Source of the DNA: a virus
Lineage: Duplodnaviria; Heunggongvirae; Uroviricota; Caudoviricetes
Strand: one strand, 5' to 3'
IMG/VR virus record: IMGVR_UViG_2548876856_000015
DNA: 8,645 bases
Shown: positions 1 through 8,645 of the stretch, in pieces
How the letters are laid out: the number at the start of each line of letters is the position of its first letter
Numbering within the stretch: position 1 is the stretch's first letter
Program-made: the position numbers and the translations under genes
Notes under the pieces: model-generated
The model's input: only the letters and a program-made list of their open reading frames with translations
Database searches by the model: none
Told to the model about the DNA's origin: nothing

Positions 1-471
1 CTAGCAGTCAAACTCAACAACTAATTCTTCGGTAATATCGCTTAGGGAAACAATGCCTTTATATCCAGTCTCAACATACGGGACAACCCTCTCGCCCCAT
101 GCTTTTTCTTCTTTCCAAGAAGTCCATGGAATCAGTTTCTCGAACTTGCTTTCGTGAAGAAACAGTATTGAAATCTTATCACCTTGTTCGCGTTTAAGGA
201 TCTGAGTTGGAAAACATTTATAAGCATGCTCTTTCCAGAATCTAGTCCCATAGCATCTATAGTCGAAAAAAGACACGCAATTGCGCTGCCTAAAAAAACC
301 ATTAGATGTATTTCCAAATCTTGAAAATTGCAATAATTCCGAATTTGGAACCAAAGCTCCAGATTGTTTTATAAGGAGCATATTAGCTGCAGTAGTAACA
401 TGAAACACTTTTCCTGAAAGTGCAGATAAAATATCGTCGTTATACGTGATTTTGAGTTGATTGATTATCAT
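1..471 (-). CDS. Hypothetical accessory protein (AT-rich cargo ORF next to the int 3' end)
   Basis: ORF track 1..483 minus, 160 aa. The first codon at 483 is TTG; the first ATG is at 471..469 (MIINQ...). Stop codon occupies window positions 1-3. Visibly more AT-rich than the neighbouring int. No clear Shine-Dalgarno. No family recognised with confidence. Confidence 0.45.
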   Translation of the reverse strand: MIINQLKITYNDDILSALSGKVFHVTTAANMLLIKQSGALVPNSELLQFSRFGNTSNGFFRQRNCVSFFDYRCYGTRFWKEHAYKCFPTQILKREQGDKISILFLHESKFEKLIPWTSWKEEKAWGERVVPYVETGYKGIVSLSDITEELVVEFDC

Positions 472-571
472 ATTTTTTATCAAGTAACTATTGGCCTGTT
501 GCTGTTCATTAGCATAGCATGATGACTGCTATTGGCTGTGAGTTCAAGGTGGCGTTGGGACTCTTAAATAC

Positions 572-2585: not shown

Positions 2586-2935
2586 TTATTGAGTCGAGTC
2601 AATTACATTTCCATGAATGCCCCCGTAGGGGCGGTTAGTTTCTCCACAAAACAGTGAAGAACACCTGCGGTGGCAGCCGCCTGGATGGATTGGGTTATGA
2701 GCCCGTCGTCCGGTGATGCTCTTCTCTGTTTTGTAAAAAGGACGGTACCAGCCGGAAGCAAGGGTACAAACTGGTACCGTCAAGACTACACACAGCATAA
2801 AGTTGTGGTGCCGGGTGCCTCCCGGTGCCTGGCGAAGGTTGCACACCAGACGGGTGGGTATCCACAGAAGGTCGACTGTCAGCCTCAACCTTAACCCGCG
2901 TGCGCTGAGCCGCATTCACCACAACGCTAAGGATT
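2586..2935. other. GC-rich structured non-coding island (candidate ncRNA or leader/terminator cluster)
   Basis: No ORF with protein-like composition on either strand; track ORFs here overlap each other and are Arg/Cys/Pro-rich. Multiple stems: GCCCC-GTA-GGGGC around 2619-2632; 11-bp perfect inverted repeat GACGGTACCAG / CTGGTACCGTC (2741-2751 and 2771-2781); CCGGG-TGCCT-CCCGG (2811-2825). GGTACC-type motif recurs three times. Confidence 0.3.
2735..2781 (-). terminator. Intrinsic-terminator-like hairpin with T-run (minus strand), between the small ORFs and the HD-xis-int genes
   Basis: On the minus strand: stem GACGGTACCAG (2781-2771), 19-nt loop, stem CTGGTACCGTC (2751-2741), then CTTTTTAC (T-run 2739-2735). 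The loop is long for a canonical terminator. Confidence 0.35.
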
Positions 2936-3035
2936 CTCTCTGGTTGAAAATACTTAGCTGTTATGTGCCTGTCTTTTCACCACTTCAGGCTCGGTGGTAT
3001 CTTGGTGTTTTCATATAGCCAAGAAGGAAATAGTT

Positions 3036-3227
3036 ATGACCAAAGAAGAAAAAATTCTTTATTTATTCCAACTATCGGTTAAGACTCACACTGCATATCA
3101 GACTGCTGCCATGACATCAGATAAAAATTACAGTACGTCAGAAAACCCGATAGACGACATAAGCAAGCTTTACGATAAGTTCGAAGCACTACTCGATAAA
3201 AAGTTTGCTGAGGCTGGGCTTGAGTGA
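3036..3227 (+). CDS. Small hypothetical protein (63 aa)
   Basis: ATG at 3036 preceded by AAGGAAA at 7-nt spacing. Product MTKEEKILYLFQLSVKTHTAYQ...DKFEALLDKKFAEAGLE has natural-looking composition. Stop TGA at 3225-3227. Opposite orientation to the surrounding minus-strand genes. Confidence 0.45.
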   Translation: MTKEEKILYLFQLSVKTHTAYQTAAMTSDKNYSTSENPIDDISKLYDKFEALLDKKFAEAGLE

Positions 3228-3365
3228 TTGTTGAATAATCGACAAAACCCAACTTAAATTTTCGTCAGTGGGCTCGATGCCATGTGCGGTGAGCTCACTT
3301 TTCAAAACTCCAAGCAATTCAGAGCTGATTTTCAATATATCTGCTTGATTTCTAACTATTCCCAC
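3189..3365 (-). CDS. Small hypothetical protein (58 aa from GTG 3365; 68 aa if from ATG 3395)
   Basis: ORF track 3189..3395. The ATG at 3395 has no SD. An in-frame GTG at 3365..3363 is preceded by GGGAGG (3376-3371) with a 5-nt spacer. Product ...VGIVRNQADILKISSELLGVLKSELTAHGIEPTDENLSW.... Overlaps the 3' end of the plus-strand ORF by 39 nt (3189-3227). Confidence 0.45.
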   Translation of the reverse strand: MGIVRNQADILKISSELLGVLKSELTAHGIEPTDENLSWVLSIIQQSLKPSLSKLFIE

Positions 3366-3653
3366 TTTTTCCTCCCTTGGTCTACGCGCGGTCATGTTTT
3401 ACGCCCAAACGACTTCACAGTTATTGTTTAAAATCTGGACTTTCATTTCATACACCTGCTTTAACATGAGTGCCTGGTGGCACAACATGACTCAACGAAT
3501 CATCCTGGACTTCATATGCCCCAGGCGGCTACTTCGTGGGCGTCCTGCCTGTTCGTTTTTGACATTTACTGACTGCTTACGACACATGCACCGTGTTGCA
3601 ACCAGATTTTGTTGTAATCCGGTAGTTGGTCTGGAACAAAAGATAAAATTAAA

Positions 3654-3690
3654 TTGCGAGATATGCAAGTAATATTTGCGAGGTATGCAA
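3654..3690 (-). promoter_or_regulatory. OL-like operator pair, probable leftward early promoter region
   Basis: Two 15-bp near-palindromes, TTGCGAGATATGCAA (3654-3668) and TTGCGAGGTATGCAA (3676-3690), spaced 22 bp apart. Same TTGCG-N5-xGCAA pattern as sites in the cI-cro intergenic region. On the minus strand TTGCAT hexamers could serve as -35 elements. Confidence 0.5.
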
Positions 3691-3703: not shown

Positions 3704-3724
3704 AAAAAGCCACCTTTCGGTGGC
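3704..3724 (-). terminator. Rho-independent terminator downstream of the cI-like gene
   Basis: Minus strand: GCCACC-GAAA-GGTGGC stem-loop (3724-3709) followed by TTTTT (3708-3704), about 20 nt after the cI stop at 3745. Confidence 0.6.
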
Positions 3725-3744
3725 CGATGGATGGGATATTGAGG

Positions 3745-4437
3745 TTAATTATGTCTCTTAAGGGTTTGCGACTGACTGATTAAGACCTTTCCAAAGACCA
3801 TGAATCGGTGTTCGTTTTCGCTAGTAATTCCCCATTCACGGTAAATCTGGTTATCAGAAATCACCAGCAGTTTGTCAGGAATCATTTGAAGTCTTTTAAC
3901 GTATATTTTGTCATCAAAACCAAAGACATATATACCATCACCATCAAACTGATTGATGCTGACATCAACGAAGATGAGATCTCCTGGCTCAATGGTTGGA
4001 CACATACTGTCCCCACGAACGTTGATAACTTTGATGTGATTGGCTGGTCGTCCGCCGAACATTGATACAGCATTATCAGTTCTGTATTCGATGGCATGAA
4101 TCACATCAATGACATCACCGCCTTGGATAAGGCCATTTCCCGCACTGGCACTGATATCCAGCATTTCAATACGGAACACATCCTTCACCTGCGCAACATC
4201 CTCATTATTACTGTTTTTATATACAGTATTACTTTTGTGGGCAGAGGTAAAGAGATCAGCAATATCAACACCTAAGCTCTTGGCAATATTACTCAGTGTT
4301 TGTTCGGTAAATTGTTTTTGCTTACCCGTTTCTAAGCGCGAGATGTTCGCCGCATCTACTCCTATTGCTTCAGCGAGATCGGCGATTTTCATGTTCTTCG
4401 CTTGGCGAAGTTGTCTGACTCGGTTTCCTATGTTCAT
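3745..4437 (-). CDS. cI: cI-like prophage repressor (N-terminal HTH + C-terminal S24 LexA-like autopeptidase domain)
   Basis: 230 aa. N-terminal HTH_XRE-type segment VRQLRQAKNMKIADLAEAIGVDAANISRLETGK. C-terminal GDSMCPTIEPGDLIFVD (Ser nucleophile) and YVKRL (Lys) match the S24 family. Divergent from the cro-like gene. Confidence 0.9.
   Translation of the reverse strand: MNIGNRVRQLRQAKNMKIADLAEAIGVDAANISRLETGKQKQFTEQTLSNIAKSLGVDIADLFTSAHKSNTVYKNSNNEDVAQVKDVFRIEMLDISASAGNGLIQGGDVIDVIHAIEYRTDNAVSMFGGRPANHIKVINVRGDSMCPTIEPGDLIFVDVSINQFDGDGIYVFGFDDKIYVKRLQMIPDKLLVISDNQIYREWGITSENEHRFMVFGKVLISQSQTLKRHN
4209..4228. promoter_or_regulatory. LexA (SOS) box-like palindrome inside the cI coding sequence
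   Basis: TACTGTTTTTATATACAGTA matches CTGT-N8-ACAG with an AT-rich spacer and TA flanks; about 18 of 20 positions agree with the E. coli consensus TACTGTATATATATACAGTA (from memory). Only CTGT-N8-ACAG match found in a manual scan of the window. Confidence 0.4.
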
Positions 4438-4534
4438 GCGTTTATTACATTTCTTTATTGCGTGATAAGCAAATCAACTTGCGCAAAATAATTGCGTGAA
4501 ATAACATGCATAACGCGCAATATTTGGAGGTTAT
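4438..4534. promoter_or_regulatory. Divergent cI/cro promoter-operator region (OR-like)
   Basis: 97-bp intergenic region between the divergent cI and cro starts. Contains TTGCGTGATAAGCAA (4458-4472), the palindrome TTGCGCAA (4479-4486), TTGCG at 4492, and ATGCATAACGCGCAA (4506-4520; TTGCGCGTTATGCAT on the other strand). GGAGG at 4526-4530 precedes the cro ATG. Confidence 0.55.
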
Positions 4535-4795
4535 ATGCAATCACTATTACGAAATGTGCGTAAGGCGCATGGTTTCACTTTGCAGCATGTTGCTGCGGGT
4601 GTTCAAGTCAATCCAGCGACGTTGAGTCGTATTGAGAGGCTGGAGCAGATTCCATCTATCGAGCTTGCAGAACGTTTAGCCAATTTTTTTAAGGGTGAAG
4701 TCAGCGAAATGCAGATTCTTTATCCGGCACGTTTTCAATCTAGCCAAAACCAGAATGGGTTTAAACCACAGGAACAGGAGGTGAACCGTGGGTAA
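4535..4795 (+). CDS. cro: Cro-like HTH (XRE-family) regulator
   Basis: 86 aa. HTH segment GFTLQHVAAGVQVNPATLSRIERLEQIPSIELAERLANFF. First rightward gene, divergent from cI. Stop TAA at 4793-4795 overlaps the next gene start. Confidence 0.8.
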   Translation: MQSLLRNVRKAHGFTLQHVAAGVQVNPATLSRIERLEQIPSIELAERLANFFKGEVSEMQILYPARFQSSQNQNGFKPQEQEVNRG

Positions 4796-5674: not shown

Positions 5675-5694
5675 AGGTCGGTCATGAGCACTAA
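5515..5694 (+). CDS. Alternative-frame small ORF (about 59 aa, TTG start), or the C-terminal part of a frameshifted gene
   Basis: The frame open from 5494 to the TAA at 5692-5694 encodes ...[64 protein letters not shown] at 5501-5506 lies 8 nt before TTG 5515. Its stop overlaps the O-like ATG at 5684. Confidence 0.3.
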
Positions 5695-6625
5695 ATTAAC
5701 CGGCTATGTATGGGATGGTTGCGCAGCGTCAGGCATGAAATTATCCAGCGTGGCAATTATGGCACGCCTGGCTGATTTCAGTAATGACGAAGGTGTGTGC
5801 TGGCCATCAATTGAAACCATTGCCCGCCAGATTGGCGCGGGGATGAGTACCGTCAGAACGGCTATCGCACGGCTGGAAGCAGAAGGCTGGTTAACGCGTA
5901 AGGCGCGTCGCCAGGGTAACCGCAATGCGTCGAATGTTTATCAGCTTAACGTTGCGAAGCTTCAGGCTGCGGCTTTTTCTCAACTGTCAGATTCTGACCC
6001 GTCAAAATCTGACGCATCAAAATCTGACCCGTCAAAATTTGATGCGTCGAAATCTGGCAAAAAAGCGGGTTTTCACCCGTCAGAATCTGGCGGGGATCCG
6101 TCAGTAAAATCAAAACATGATCCGTCAGATAAAAAAACTTCTCGTCCGGACGCTTCGCAACCGGACACGCAGACGGCTGAACAGGATTTTTTAACTCGCC
6201 ATCCTGATGCGGTTGTATTCAGCCCTAAAAAGCGCCAGTGGGGGACGCAGGATGATTTGACCTGCGCACAGTGGCTCTGGAAAAAAATCATCGCCCTGTA
6301 CGAGCAGGCTGCCGAATGTGACGGCGAGGTGGTTCGTCCCAAAGAACCGAACTGGACAGCCTGGGCAAACGAAATTCGCCTGATGTGTGTGCAGGATGGT
6401 CGTACTCACAAACAAATCTGCGAGATGTACAGCCGCGTCAGCCGCGATCCGTTCTGGTGCCGTAACGTGCTCAGCCCGTCGAAGCTGCGGGAAAAATGGG
6501 ATGAGCTTTCCCTGCGCTTATCGCCGTCCGTAAGCACGTACACCGAAAAACGCGAAGACCCGTACTTCAAATCCAGTTACGACAATGTGGACTACAGCCA
6601 GATCCCGGCAGGATTCAGGGGGTGA
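5684..6625 (+). CDS. Replication initiator protein (lambda O-like; N-terminal winged-helix/HTH domain; ori iterons inside the gene)
   Basis: 313 aa. N-terminal HTH segment SVAIMARLADFSNDEGVCWPSIETIARQIGAGMSTVRTAIARLEAEGWL. Internal 5-aa periodic low-complexity region encoded by tandem 15-bp DNA repeats. Position after the cII-like gene. SD GAGG at 5675-5678. Confidence 0.7.
   Translation: MSTKLTGYVWDGCAASGMKLSSVAIMARLADFSNDEGVCWPSIETIARQIGAGMSTVRTAIARLEAEGWLTRKARRQGNRNASNVYQLNVAKLQAAAFSQLSDSDPSKSDASKSDPSKFDASKSGKKAGFHPSESGGDPSVKSKHDPSDKKTSRPDASQPDTQTAEQDFLTRHPDAVVFSPKKRQWGTQDDLTCAQWLWKKIIALYEQAAECDGEVVRPKEPNWTAWANEIRLMCVQDGRTHKQICEMYSRVSRDPFWCRNVLSPSKLREKWDELSLRLSPSVSTYTEKREDPYFKSSYDNVDYSQIPAGFRG
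5987..6061. repeat. Five tandem 15-bp direct repeats (candidate ori iterons), followed by a CCGTCAG repeat family and an A-rich tract to about 6136
   Basis: Repeats: TCAGATTCTGACCCG, TCAAAATCTGACGCA, TCAAAATCTGACCCG, TCAAAATTTGATGCG, TCGAAATCTGGCAAA. CCGTCAG recurs at 6077, 6098 and 6122. GATAAAAAAAC at about 6128-6138. Confidence 0.6.
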
Positions 6626-7847: not shown

Positions 7848-8645
7848 ATGAATAATCTGATGGTCATTGATGGTATTGAAGTTCGTCGTGATGCTTATGG
7901 TCGTTACAGCCTGAACGATCTGCACAGGGCTGCCGGTTCTCTGGATAAGCATAAGCCTGCATTCTGGCTCCGCAATGAGCAAACTGAACGTTTAATAAGC
8001 GAGTTGCAGATTTGCAACTCGGTCAATATAGAGCCAGTTAACGTTATTCGTGGCGGAAATAACCAGGGGACGTATGTCTGCAAAGAACTGGTGTATGCCT
8101 ATGCAATGTGGATCAGCCCGTCATTCCATCTGAAGGTGATCCGTACTTTCGATATGGTAACCAGCGCACCGGAAAAATTATCCGGGCAGGCTGCTGACAA
8201 GATGCAGGCAGGTGTGATTCTGCTGGACTTTATGCGCAGGGAGTTAAACCTGTCTAACTCTTCAGTGCTTGGTGCCTGTCAGAAGCTTCAGGAGGCTGTT
8301 GGCTTACCGAATCTGGCACCGCGCTATGCCATTGATGCTCCTGCTGATGCACTCGATGGCTCAAGCCGCCCTACGCTATCATTGAGTGCACTGCTGAAGC
8401 AGTATGGTATCCGCCTTACGGCTAATCAGGCATATCACCAGATGGTGAAGCTGGGGATCGTCGAACAGCGCGAACGATACAGCCGTACCGCGATTAACAA
8501 CATCAAAAAATTCTGGTCGCTGACAGCGAAAGGCTGCATGTTCGGCAAGAACATCACCAGTCCCGCAAATCCGCGCGAGACGCAGCCGCACTTTTTCGAA
8601 TCCCGATTCCCTGAGCTGTTAAAGCTGCTCGATACCGTTCATTGA
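7848..8645 (+). CDS. KilA-N domain protein (antirepressor-like)
   Basis: 265 aa. N-terminal region MVIDGIEVRRDAYGRYSLNDLHRAAG...KPAFWLRNEQTERLISEL...CKELVYAYAMWISPSFHLKVIRTFD is typical of the KilA-N domain. GAGGAG at 7833-7838, 9 nt before the ATG. Stop at the window end. Confidence 0.7.
   Translation: MNNLMVIDGIEVRRDAYGRYSLNDLHRAAGSLDKHKPAFWLRNEQTERLISELQICNSVNIEPVNVIRGGNNQGTYVCKELVYAYAMWISPSFHLKVIRTFDMVTSAPEKLSGQAADKMQAGVILLDFMRRELNLSNSSVLGACQKLQEAVGLPNLAPRYAIDAPADALDGSSRPTLSLSALLKQYGIRLTANQAYHQMVKLGIVEQRERYSRTAINNIKKFWSLTAKGCMFGKNITSPANPRETQPHFFESRFPELLKLLDTVH

Follow-up and report, generated by a model that had tools for sequence, protein, structure and literature searches.

We analysed an 8,645-nt stretch of DNA from a tailed virus of the class Caudoviricetes (IMG/VR record IMGVR_UViG_2548876856_000015; hereafter the window), which comes from a lambdoid prophage and covers its integration and immunity region. 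Over the tested stretch, the window shares 99.3% identity with Shigella phage SfII, and several Escherichia coli genomes carry prophages that are 100% identical to it. Directly past the cI repressor and the left operators, in the early-left arm of this SfII/e14-type prophage, two small genes converge and overlap at their 3′ ends: one encodes a 63-aa protein on the plus strand (hereafter the plus gene) and the other a 58-aa protein on the minus strand (the minus gene). Our results reveal that both genes are real and conserved, that they are linked among relatives and that they occupy this position relative to the operators. We propose that the pair is an excludon-like accessory cassette whose members would be expressed reciprocally in lysogeny and lytic growth, a reading to which we give an even chance of being right.

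Two genuine genes with a shared 3′ end

The plus gene runs from ATG 3036 to TGA 3227 and is preceded by the Shine–Dalgarno site AAGGAA (3024–3029, 6 nt before the ATG); its product is a hypothetical protein both in the SfII annotation (SfII_36) and in that of the Prokaryotic Genome Annotation Pipeline (PGAP; WP_000159356.1). The minus gene in its 58-aa form runs on the minus strand from GTG 3365 to the stop codon at 3189–3191, with GGGAGG (3371–3376) located 5 nt upstream of the GTG; a start at ATG 3395 would give 68 aa. A first-pass annotation of this DNA had described a convergent pair of open reading frames (ORFs) within 3036–3395, of 63 aa on the plus strand and 58–68 aa on the minus strand, with a 39-bp overlap at their 3′ ends, a good Shine–Dalgarno site for the former and GGGAGG for the latter, all of which we confirm. 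The shared 3′ ends (3189–3227) are coding on each strand over 39 bp, with codon boundaries that coincide, the first position of each codon facing the third of a codon in the other frame.

The window holds 67 ORFs of at least 40 aa and ORFs of the pair's size are common by chance, so the pair would not be significant alone; it is the comparative data that make it so. Selection was assessed by Nei–Gojobori counts in six lineages whose DNA differs by 10–27%. In its unique part, the plus frame has a ratio of nonsynonymous to synonymous differences (pN/pS) of 0.16 (pS 0.62) and the minus frame one of 0.25 (pS 0.53), both with 0 stops; the remaining five frames of each stretch have either a pN/pS of at least 0.9 or 8–22 stops. 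The mirror frames (opposite strand, common wobble position) reach pN/pS values of 0.29–0.34, but contain 8–15 stops. The 39-bp overlap is 90–100% identical in DNA between lineages, compared with 73–90% in the single-coding parts.

Both genes also have distant relatives. A tblastn search of phage genomes identified a plus-protein homolog (40% identity) in Edwardsiella phage EPP-1, which converges with a 33-bp overlap on a 121-aa minus-strand gene adjoining a LexA/cI-like repressor; the last 51 residues of this 121-aa protein are 41% identical to the minus ORF of the window, through to the C-terminus. Relatives of both genes at ∼40% identity occur in Kluyvera, Serratia, Klebsiella, Edwardsiella and E. 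albertii prophages, and Shine–Dalgarno sites are kept at both gene starts in relatives. Both ORFs are genuine, conserved genes. The first-pass annotation had suspected that one of them may be spurious, and had named conservation and synonymous-rate analysis of each frame as a check and a single conserved frame, or loss of the overlap in relatives, as grounds for rejection. Both frames pass that check, each being conserved and under purifying selection, and no relative with both genes lacks the overlap.

Start site and modular structure of the minus gene

Comparison among genera points to the 58-aa GTG form as the family form, because in other genera the homologs begin at the position of GTG 3365 and lack the extension from ATG 3395, which is confined to the window's lineage; translation from ATG 3395 could nevertheless occur. 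Gene callers predict homologs of 57–62 aa that start at this GTG position, and the G-rich Shine–Dalgarno site before it is kept in the six lineages. In a 5.8-billion-protein collection, minus homologs of 57–62 aa come from Kluyvera and from metagenomes, and longer proteins carry a ∼50-aa module (hereafter the module) at their C-terminus. An exhaustive HMMER search of 1.84 billion cluster representatives recovered the module in just 14 clusters, and its position is C-terminal in all of them.

The N-terminal extension (MTARRPREEK, 3366–3395, minus strand) contains the GGGAGG of the 58-aa start. From 3378 rightward, the DNA is homologous to the 5′ part of SfV orf33, with the SfV match spanning 3378–3560. 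Within this stretch, a 29-aa upstream ORF (3399–3488, minus strand) is a remnant of the N-terminus of an SfV-orf33-type gene: its residues MLKQVYEMKVQILNNNCEVVW are identical to SfV orf33 residues 1–21, and it is in frame with ATG 3395, with one TAA between. Recombination probably left the ATG 3395 extension behind as a scar, and together with the 29-aa ORF the extension marks a recombination junction within the early-left leader.

The module has been joined to several N-terminal contexts: it stands alone, or follows a ClpX-type C4 zinc finger, a coiled-coil 'MxKQEP' domain (phrog_1744), the N-domain of the EPP-1 protein, the N-domain of protein P0036 or, in E. albertii, a 150-residue domain. 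The sequences P0040 and P0041 carry the zinc-finger cysteine motif CxxC...CxxC. These domain contexts hint that protein interactions related to ClpX are a target of the early-left proteins. In some E. coli strains, the zinc-finger gene sits separately between the leader of the leftward promoter (PL) and the minus gene; an example is E. coli G5 (L057 2045–2266, minus strand; PF06689 2.1e-10). In Klebsiella (L060 3001–3336), the module is part of the 111-aa protein P0031, to which the zinc finger is apparently fused; the N-terminal part of P0031 has a weak precomputed PF06689 match and weak matches to the ClpX N-terminus. The minus protein of the window is not itself such a zinc finger, as it has no cysteines and no PF06689 match.

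At the profile level, the minus protein matches phrog_15476 over its full length (E 7.4e-50) and phrog_2982 more weakly (E 2.6e-4, residues 13–58 to positions 70–115 of 119); the fused homologs P0031, P0013 and P0015 have the same PHROG pattern. The minus gene is missing from the SfII record, from the four PGAP-annotated regions inspected and from RefSeq.

Linkage among related prophages

Related loci were gathered in four ways (i.e. through the minus module, the plus protein, exact-protein look-up and annotated genomes). Both genes are present in 79 of the 80 related loci, many of which are near-identical copies. Wherever both genes occur they are convergent, with a 3′ overlap of 39, 36, 33, 30, 27, 24, 23 or 12 bp, and the plus gene is found beside the module irrespective of what the minus gene carries at its N-terminus. 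Decay is evident in a few loci: L048/L049 (with an apparent overlap of 46 bp), L069, L072 and L073 have a frameshift in the plus gene, and Buttiauxella has a disrupted minus gene. Among complete E. coli genomes, 63 of 5426 carry the pair, which is always whole; among the matches listed for these 63 genomes, none has more than one annotated feature, PGAP calling the plus gene alone. In E. albertii (L084 1225–4192), the pair lies inside a dicB-like operon of a Qin/dicB-type prophage, between ydfA/B/C-like genes and DicB and downstream of a PaaA2-ParE toxin-antitoxin pair and a helix-turn-helix (HTH) repressor.

Protein families and predicted properties

The plus protein matches phrog_2605 (E 1.4e-33, residues 1–63 to profile positions 1–63 of 69), and its family comprises 51 clusters whose named members are all Enterobacterales. 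Searches of Pfam, NCBIfam and PADLOC returned no family for either protein, and the only matches are to PHROGs of unknown function, in agreement with the first-pass annotation, which had recognised no family for either product. Sequence-profile searches of the PDB gave nothing below E 0.7 for either protein. Foldseek comparison of AlphaFold2 models with the PDB and BFVD gave best E values of at least 0.6 and 0 matches for the plus protein; a likeness to Mu Mor (E 4.4) was judged meaningless.

Both proteins are acidic, with isoelectric points of ∼5 (5.0 for the plus protein). The AlphaFold2 model of the plus protein is a helical hairpin (helices 3–28 and 38–59; predicted local distance difference test (pLDDT) score 76), and that of the minus protein has helices at 7–27 and 34–47 and a short third helix at 50–55 (pLDDT 80). 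The grand average of hydropathy is −0.56 (plus) and 0.21 (minus), and the maximum 19-residue Kyte–Doolittle mean is 0.46 and 0.80, respectively. Acidity and the lack of a hydrophobic segment argue against membrane toxins and against DNA binding. The models and compositions suggest that both proteins are small, acidic, soluble, helical accessory factors, which are more likely to bind proteins than nucleic acids.

Several specific identities were considered and rejected. A ribbon-helix-helix fold for the minus protein, prompted by the pattern ILKISS-helix-G..PT-helix, is contradicted by a predicted helix rather than a strand at 7–27, an hhalign probability of 0.5% against Arc, the absence of a Pfam ribbon-helix-helix match and the acidic charge. 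For a lambda CIII-type FtsH inhibitor, hhalign returned a probability of 0.4%, in what is a weak test. A type I toxin-antitoxin identity is rejected because there is no hydrophobic peptide and both strands are coding under frame-specific purifying selection, and a type II toxin-antitoxin or known defence identity because PADLOC, Pfam and NCBIfam gave no match and the genes are convergent rather than co-directional.

Transcriptional context of the pair

Directly upstream of the plus gene lies a conserved promoter-like block of ∼60 nt (2966–3029, plus strand). It is near-invariant before plus homologs in Escherichia, Kluyvera, Serratia, Klebsiella and Edwardsiella, its conservation starts sharply at ∼2959–2967, and it also precedes unrelated genes in e14 (ymfI), SfV and SfIV. 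We infer that the block carries the plus-gene promoter, for which the candidate elements are TTCACC (2976–2981), a 16-nt spacer, an extended -10 TGG (2995–2997) and TATCTT (2998–3003). A palindrome (TCTTGG 3000–3005/CCAAGA 3019–3024) overlaps the putative -10, and its arms change compensatorily, to TGCTGG/CCAGCA in e14 and TCCTTTT/AAAAGGA in SfV. It may be coincidental, or represent either an RNA hairpin of a transcript starting further upstream or a protein-binding site. A LexA box in the block was rejected from the sequence, where CTGT-N8 is not followed by ACAG. In the lineage represented by L075–L079, the upstream sequence is different and again has two hairpins, the second of which covers the Shine–Dalgarno site.

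Downstream of the plus gene, no strong plus-strand terminator was found before the minus gene, only a weak hairpin (GTGGGCTC 3268–3275/GAGCTCAC 3291–3298, followed by TTTT; 3268–3302, plus strand) that lies inside the minus gene. The hairpin is present in five of six folded homologs, with a TCTT tail in others, and its arms correspond to conserved SEL and EPT codons; it is a weak candidate terminator for plus transcripts and may be a by-product of coding.

On the other side of the pair, between the cI terminator and the minus gene, the region at 3640–3690 (minus strand) contains two 15-bp dyad operators, TTGCGAGATATGCAA (3654–3668) and TTGCGAGGTATGCAA (3676–3690), whose motif is that of the OR operator at 4458–4472 in the cI-cro intergenic region. 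By analogy with lambda, we take this dyad region to correspond to the left operator and PL, and candidate PL hexamers can be read from the sequence: a -35 TTGCAT (3668–3663), a 17-nt spacer and a -10 TATCTT (3645–3640). The intrinsic terminator downstream of cI (3708–3725, minus strand) was found by scanning and is also present in the SfII record. With this arrangement, the minus gene would be the first ORF of a cI-repressed leftward transcript, after a leader of ∼270 nt.

The leader of the leftward transcript contains a conserved, structured RNA element of ∼75 nt (3490–3564, minus strand), which belongs to the context rather than to the core pair. It is 85–94% identical in SfV, SfIV, e14, Kluyvera, Serratia and Buttiauxella. 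A covariance model found one copy per locus (76–100 bits) in e14, SfV, SfIV, Kati, PhiR29_1, mEp460_4F5, Kluyvera, Serratia and Buttiauxella, no second copy, and none in the EPP-1 and Klebsiella loci that carry the pair. In the alignment, 97.7% of cells are paired, four pairs have changes in both partners, and none of 500 shuffled versions scores as high. G.U pairs form on the minus strand only, the core GGCTACTTCGTGGGCGTCCTGCCTGTTCG (plus-strand reading) is invariant, and a 5-bp stem covaries (CCTGG/CCAGG, CCCGG/CCGGG, CCGGT/ACCGG and CCCGT/ACGGG). Rfam has no match to the element. SfII, SfV and SfIV are without a recognisable N or cIII, and the SfIV genes at this position have been called unknown (PMC3851460). 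Because a terminator-bearing small RNA precedes yfdR, xis and int in phages without N, the element could be a put-like cis-antiterminator or a processing site. A 92-aa plus-strand ORF (3394–3672) that overlies the leader element and the operators has no family match and was treated as spurious.

The slot and its other cargoes

The pair occupies a slot whose flanks (2621–3001/3029 on the left and 3494–3560 on the right) are 85–97% identical in SfV, SfIV and e14, and the cargo between these flanks differs. In e14/SfV/SfII-type prophages, this slot separates the left operon from PL. An 851-bp slot query matches 1,936 of 5,426 complete E. coli genomes, mostly through the flanks, with the pair in just 63. 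The cargo of e14 is ymfI (plus strand)/ymfJ (minus strand), which converge with a 63-bp overlap; that of phage Kati comprises genes of 144 aa (plus strand) and 68 aa (minus strand) with a 29-bp overlap; and that of SfV is an 81-aa plus ORF and orf33 (minus strand) with an 83-bp overlap. The SfV record annotates orf33 alone, and vB_EcoM-720R4 annotates just the 81-aa plus gene, of identical sequence (L058 1636–1881, plus strand). Further relatives carry plus-strand-only or minus-strand-only cargo in the slot. The occurrence of four unrelated pairs with a convergent overlap in a single slot argues for selection of this layout.

For the e14 pair, expression data are available. Both ymfI-ymfJ and sieB-ydaF (Rac) are among the convergent excludons defined by RNA sequencing (RNA-seq) in E. 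coli K-12 (PMC12288877). In the SOS response, ymfJ is induced late (log2 fold change 4.8) and the YmfJ protein is detected, and ymfI rises by only about 2 (PMC11002266). Late induction of ymfJ is as expected for a gene under a cI-like repressor. Homology of the window pair to YmfI/YmfJ was rejected: BLASTP gave no alignment in three of four comparisons (YmfI against either plus protein, and the window minus ORF against YmfJ) and E 0.67 in the fourth (the EPP-1 minus protein against YmfJ). Nevertheless, the N-terminus of YmfJ matches phrog_2982 at positions 1–42 and the minus module at positions 70–115, which makes the minus gene and YmfJ modular relatives through this profile.

A proposed excludon-like cassette and its alternatives

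The remaining left-arm genes (yfdR, xis and int) all follow the minus gene on its strand, and leftward transcription would cross the whole plus gene to reach them. Because the leftward transcript crosses the plus gene and there is no strong plus-strand terminator, the two transcription units are expected to be mutually antisense, as the first-pass annotation had supposed for the overlap, and far beyond the 39 bp, in the manner of an excludon, and their expression should therefore be reciprocal. In the lysogen, the minus gene would be silent, while the plus gene, placed behind its own promoter-like block and read toward PL, would be on as long as PL is repressed, and its transcript would damp leaky expression of the minus gene. 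Upon induction or infection, the minus gene would be made at once, and the firing of PL would shut the plus gene off through collision and RNA duplex formation. Excludons are recognised as opposite-strand neighbours with overlapping coding regions or untranslated regions, and the pair has this configuration, with an overlap (39 bp in the window) that is kept in relatives. Two further marks of excludons are mapped overlapping transcripts on both strands, for which the RNA-seq call of its positional analogue ymfI-ymfJ is indirect evidence, and mutually exclusive expression or opposing functions; exclusive expression would be expected from the operator-controlled PL upstream of the minus gene and from the SOS data of e14.

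Several observations weigh against an excludon-like cassette. First, the putative plus promoter was not called by a strict consensus promoter scan, the candidate agreeing with the consensus at 8 of 12 positions plus the TGn, and the compensatory changes in the palindrome would fit an RNA hairpin or a protein site, either of which would undermine the promoter assignment. Second, in e14, ymfI is not lowered on SOS induction, in a table that is silent on strand separation (PMC11002266). Third, overlap length and phase vary (12–39 bp), so that no specific duplex sequence is conserved. Fourth, other genes of the early operon precede the minus gene in E. albertii. Fifth, the single exception to linkage, a Citrobacter koseri lineage, has a homolog of the first 40 residues of the plus protein and lacks the module. 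Finally, co-inheritance could be purely physical, as there is no intergenic breakpoint.

The main rival explanation is that the two are independent accessory genes, with the linkage physical and the overlap a product of genome compaction in a recombination hot spot, without regulatory meaning. This explanation is doubtful on balance, yet it deserves serious consideration: it accounts for the unconserved length and phase of the overlap and for the one lineage with a partial plus gene and no module; recombination scars flank the cassette; and the minus gene freely exchanges its N-terminal domains but retains the block beside the plus gene, as physical linkage predicts. It does not readily explain why the four unrelated pairs in the slot are all convergent and overlapping, or why genera whose proteins are ∼40% identical still retain some overlap. 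The e14 pair also behaves as an RNA-seq excludon, and leftward transcription must cross the plus gene in any case.

Alternatively, the proteins themselves could be antagonists, with the plus protein made in the lysogen neutralising the C-terminal module of the minus protein and the RNA overlap being secondary; the plus protein would then serve as a safety latch against leaky PL expression or as an immunity-like/Esc-like antidote. We consider this unlikely. The plus gene does accompany the module whether the latter is alone or fused (to the zinc finger, the coiled coil or the EPP-1 and P0036 N-domains), the helical hairpins predicted for the two proteins could form a packed bundle, and both are acidic and so improbable binders of nucleic acids. 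However, physical overlap explains the co-occurrence equally well, the shared acidity does not favour simple charge complementarity, and the Citrobacter lineage remains an exception. It is a long shot that the pair is a lysis-lysogeny safety latch of a new kind, in which the 63-aa lysogen protein would be a dedicated antagonist of a ∼50-aa effector module borne by the first early-left proteins of numerous enterobacterial prophages. We would put no more trust in the extension of this scheme, whereby the genes are tied tail-to-tail and switching on PL would both make the effector and silence its inhibitor by antisense, in a design reinvented with unrelated proteins in e14, SfV and Kati.

The first-pass annotation had likened the pair to small toxin/antisense or regulator pairs. 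A toxin-antitoxin-like or abortive-infection module, in which an antisense transcript or product from one gene would restrain a toxic protein encoded by the other, is very unlikely. The convergent layout with 3′ overlap is that of several type I prophage systems, and prophage accessory genes are classically found at such a location; however, neither protein has a hydrophobic segment, the supposed antitoxin strand encodes a conserved protein under purifying selection, PADLOC, Pfam and NCBIfam contain no matching toxin-antitoxin or defence family, and the module is a domain of larger early proteins, unlike type I toxins. That one ORF is a mere shadow of a real gene on the opposite strand can practically be dismissed: although PGAP and the SfII authors annotate the plus ORF alone and mirror frames can look partly constrained, the unique parts of both frames are open in all lineages with the lowest pN/pS, the mirror frames are riddled with stops, each protein has distant homologs detectable at the protein level only, and the minus module is found fused to other domains.

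Comparison with known systems

One of the closest parallels to the excludon-like cassette proposed here is ymfI/ymfJ of e14, which occupies the same slot, has a left flank that is 89% identical up to the plus start codon, carries the same leader RNA and adjoins a cI-like repressor. Like the window pair, it is convergent and overlapping; ymfJ is under SOS/cI control, and the pair is a listed excludon. By contrast, its proteins are larger (113 and 102 aa) and have no BLASTP relationship to the window pair. The sieB gene of Rac, lambda and P22 is likewise an accessory gene of the early-left region, and in Rac it faces the leftward operon. In P22, the sas antisense RNA acts against sieB on superinfection, which provides a precedent for antisense control of a gene expressed in the lysogen. 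SieB differs in being a ∼190-aa membrane protein known to cause exclusion; the product of the plus gene is a 63-aa, acidic, predicted soluble hairpin without similarity to it.

Excludons, in which convergent or divergent genes have long overlapping transcripts, were first described in Listeria. They share with the window pair convergent genes whose transcripts necessarily overlap and whose expression states are expected to be opposite (PMC12288877). For the window pair, by contrast, the transcript overlap is predicted from the DNA. Type I toxin-antitoxin systems with a 3′ overlap resemble the pair in their prophage location, small genes and convergent overlapping transcription. Among these, bsrG/SR4 and txpA/RatA are type I prophage systems with a convergent 3′ overlap. 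They and ralR/ralA of Rac combine hydrophobic or nuclease toxins with a non-coding antitoxin, unlike the window pair, which consists of two soluble, selected proteins. In lambda, the convergent OOP RNA covers the 3′ end of a regulatory gene, cII, and its down-regulation of that gene depends on duplex formation; OOP is, however, a 77-nt non-coding RNA of the right arm, whereas the partner in the window is protein-coding and lies in the left arm.

Convergent overlapping genes, excludons, accessory genes that face PL (sieB) and ymfI/ymfJ itself are of an already known kind. What is new is a previously half-annotated pair with two uncharacterised small-protein families; its conservation and the repeated reinvention of the layout are mildly interesting rather than surprising.

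Other features of the window

In the rest of the window, the minus strand carries int (572–1699), xis (1680–1925), a gene for a YfdR-type 5′-deoxynucleotidase (1980–2543), a frameshifted hypothetical gene (2586–2915; annotated by PGAP and in SfII) and the cI-type repressor gene (3745–4437; Pfam HTH_3 and Peptidase_S24; named cI in SfII). The cro gene (4535–4795) is on the plus strand and is followed by a CII-like ymfL gene and replication genes.

The terminator-bearing small RNA mentioned above (2732–2955, minus strand) is a prophage RNA of the STnc100/PasD family (44.7 bits, just below the Rfam gathering score of 47; E 3e-8), with a terminal hairpin and U-run and a weak DicF-like match at its 3′ end (2740–2794). 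It overlaps the frameshifted hypothetical gene and lies within the left flank common to e14 (ymfH region), SfV and SfIV. Inside the replication-initiator gene (5684–6625), a 15-nt unit, TCTGACCCGTCAAAA, is repeated in 4.3 tandem copies (5993–6056, plus strand); it encodes SDPSKSDASK repeats and probably represents origin iterons. This tandem repeat explains an Rfam match to mir-5880, which is meaningless. At the window ends are a 160-aa ORF beyond int (1–483, minus strand) and a 265-aa ORF (7848–8645, plus strand) whose protein begins MNNLMVIDGIEVRRD.

Implications for lambdoid prophages

RefSeq and phage annotations systematically omit a conserved 58-aa gene, and likewise the plus gene of SfV, because gene callers keep only one member of a convergent overlapping pair. 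The slot flanks are present in ∼1,900 of 5,426 E. coli genomes, and in four unrelated cases the slot holds a plus-strand gene that faces the first early gene. As an excludon-like cassette, the pair would be a simple example of convergent transcription tied to a well-understood switch, i.e. cI cleavage. If its two proteins are not partners, they are two more phage proteins of unknown function; if they are, they would add a small-protein layer to the control of prophage induction.

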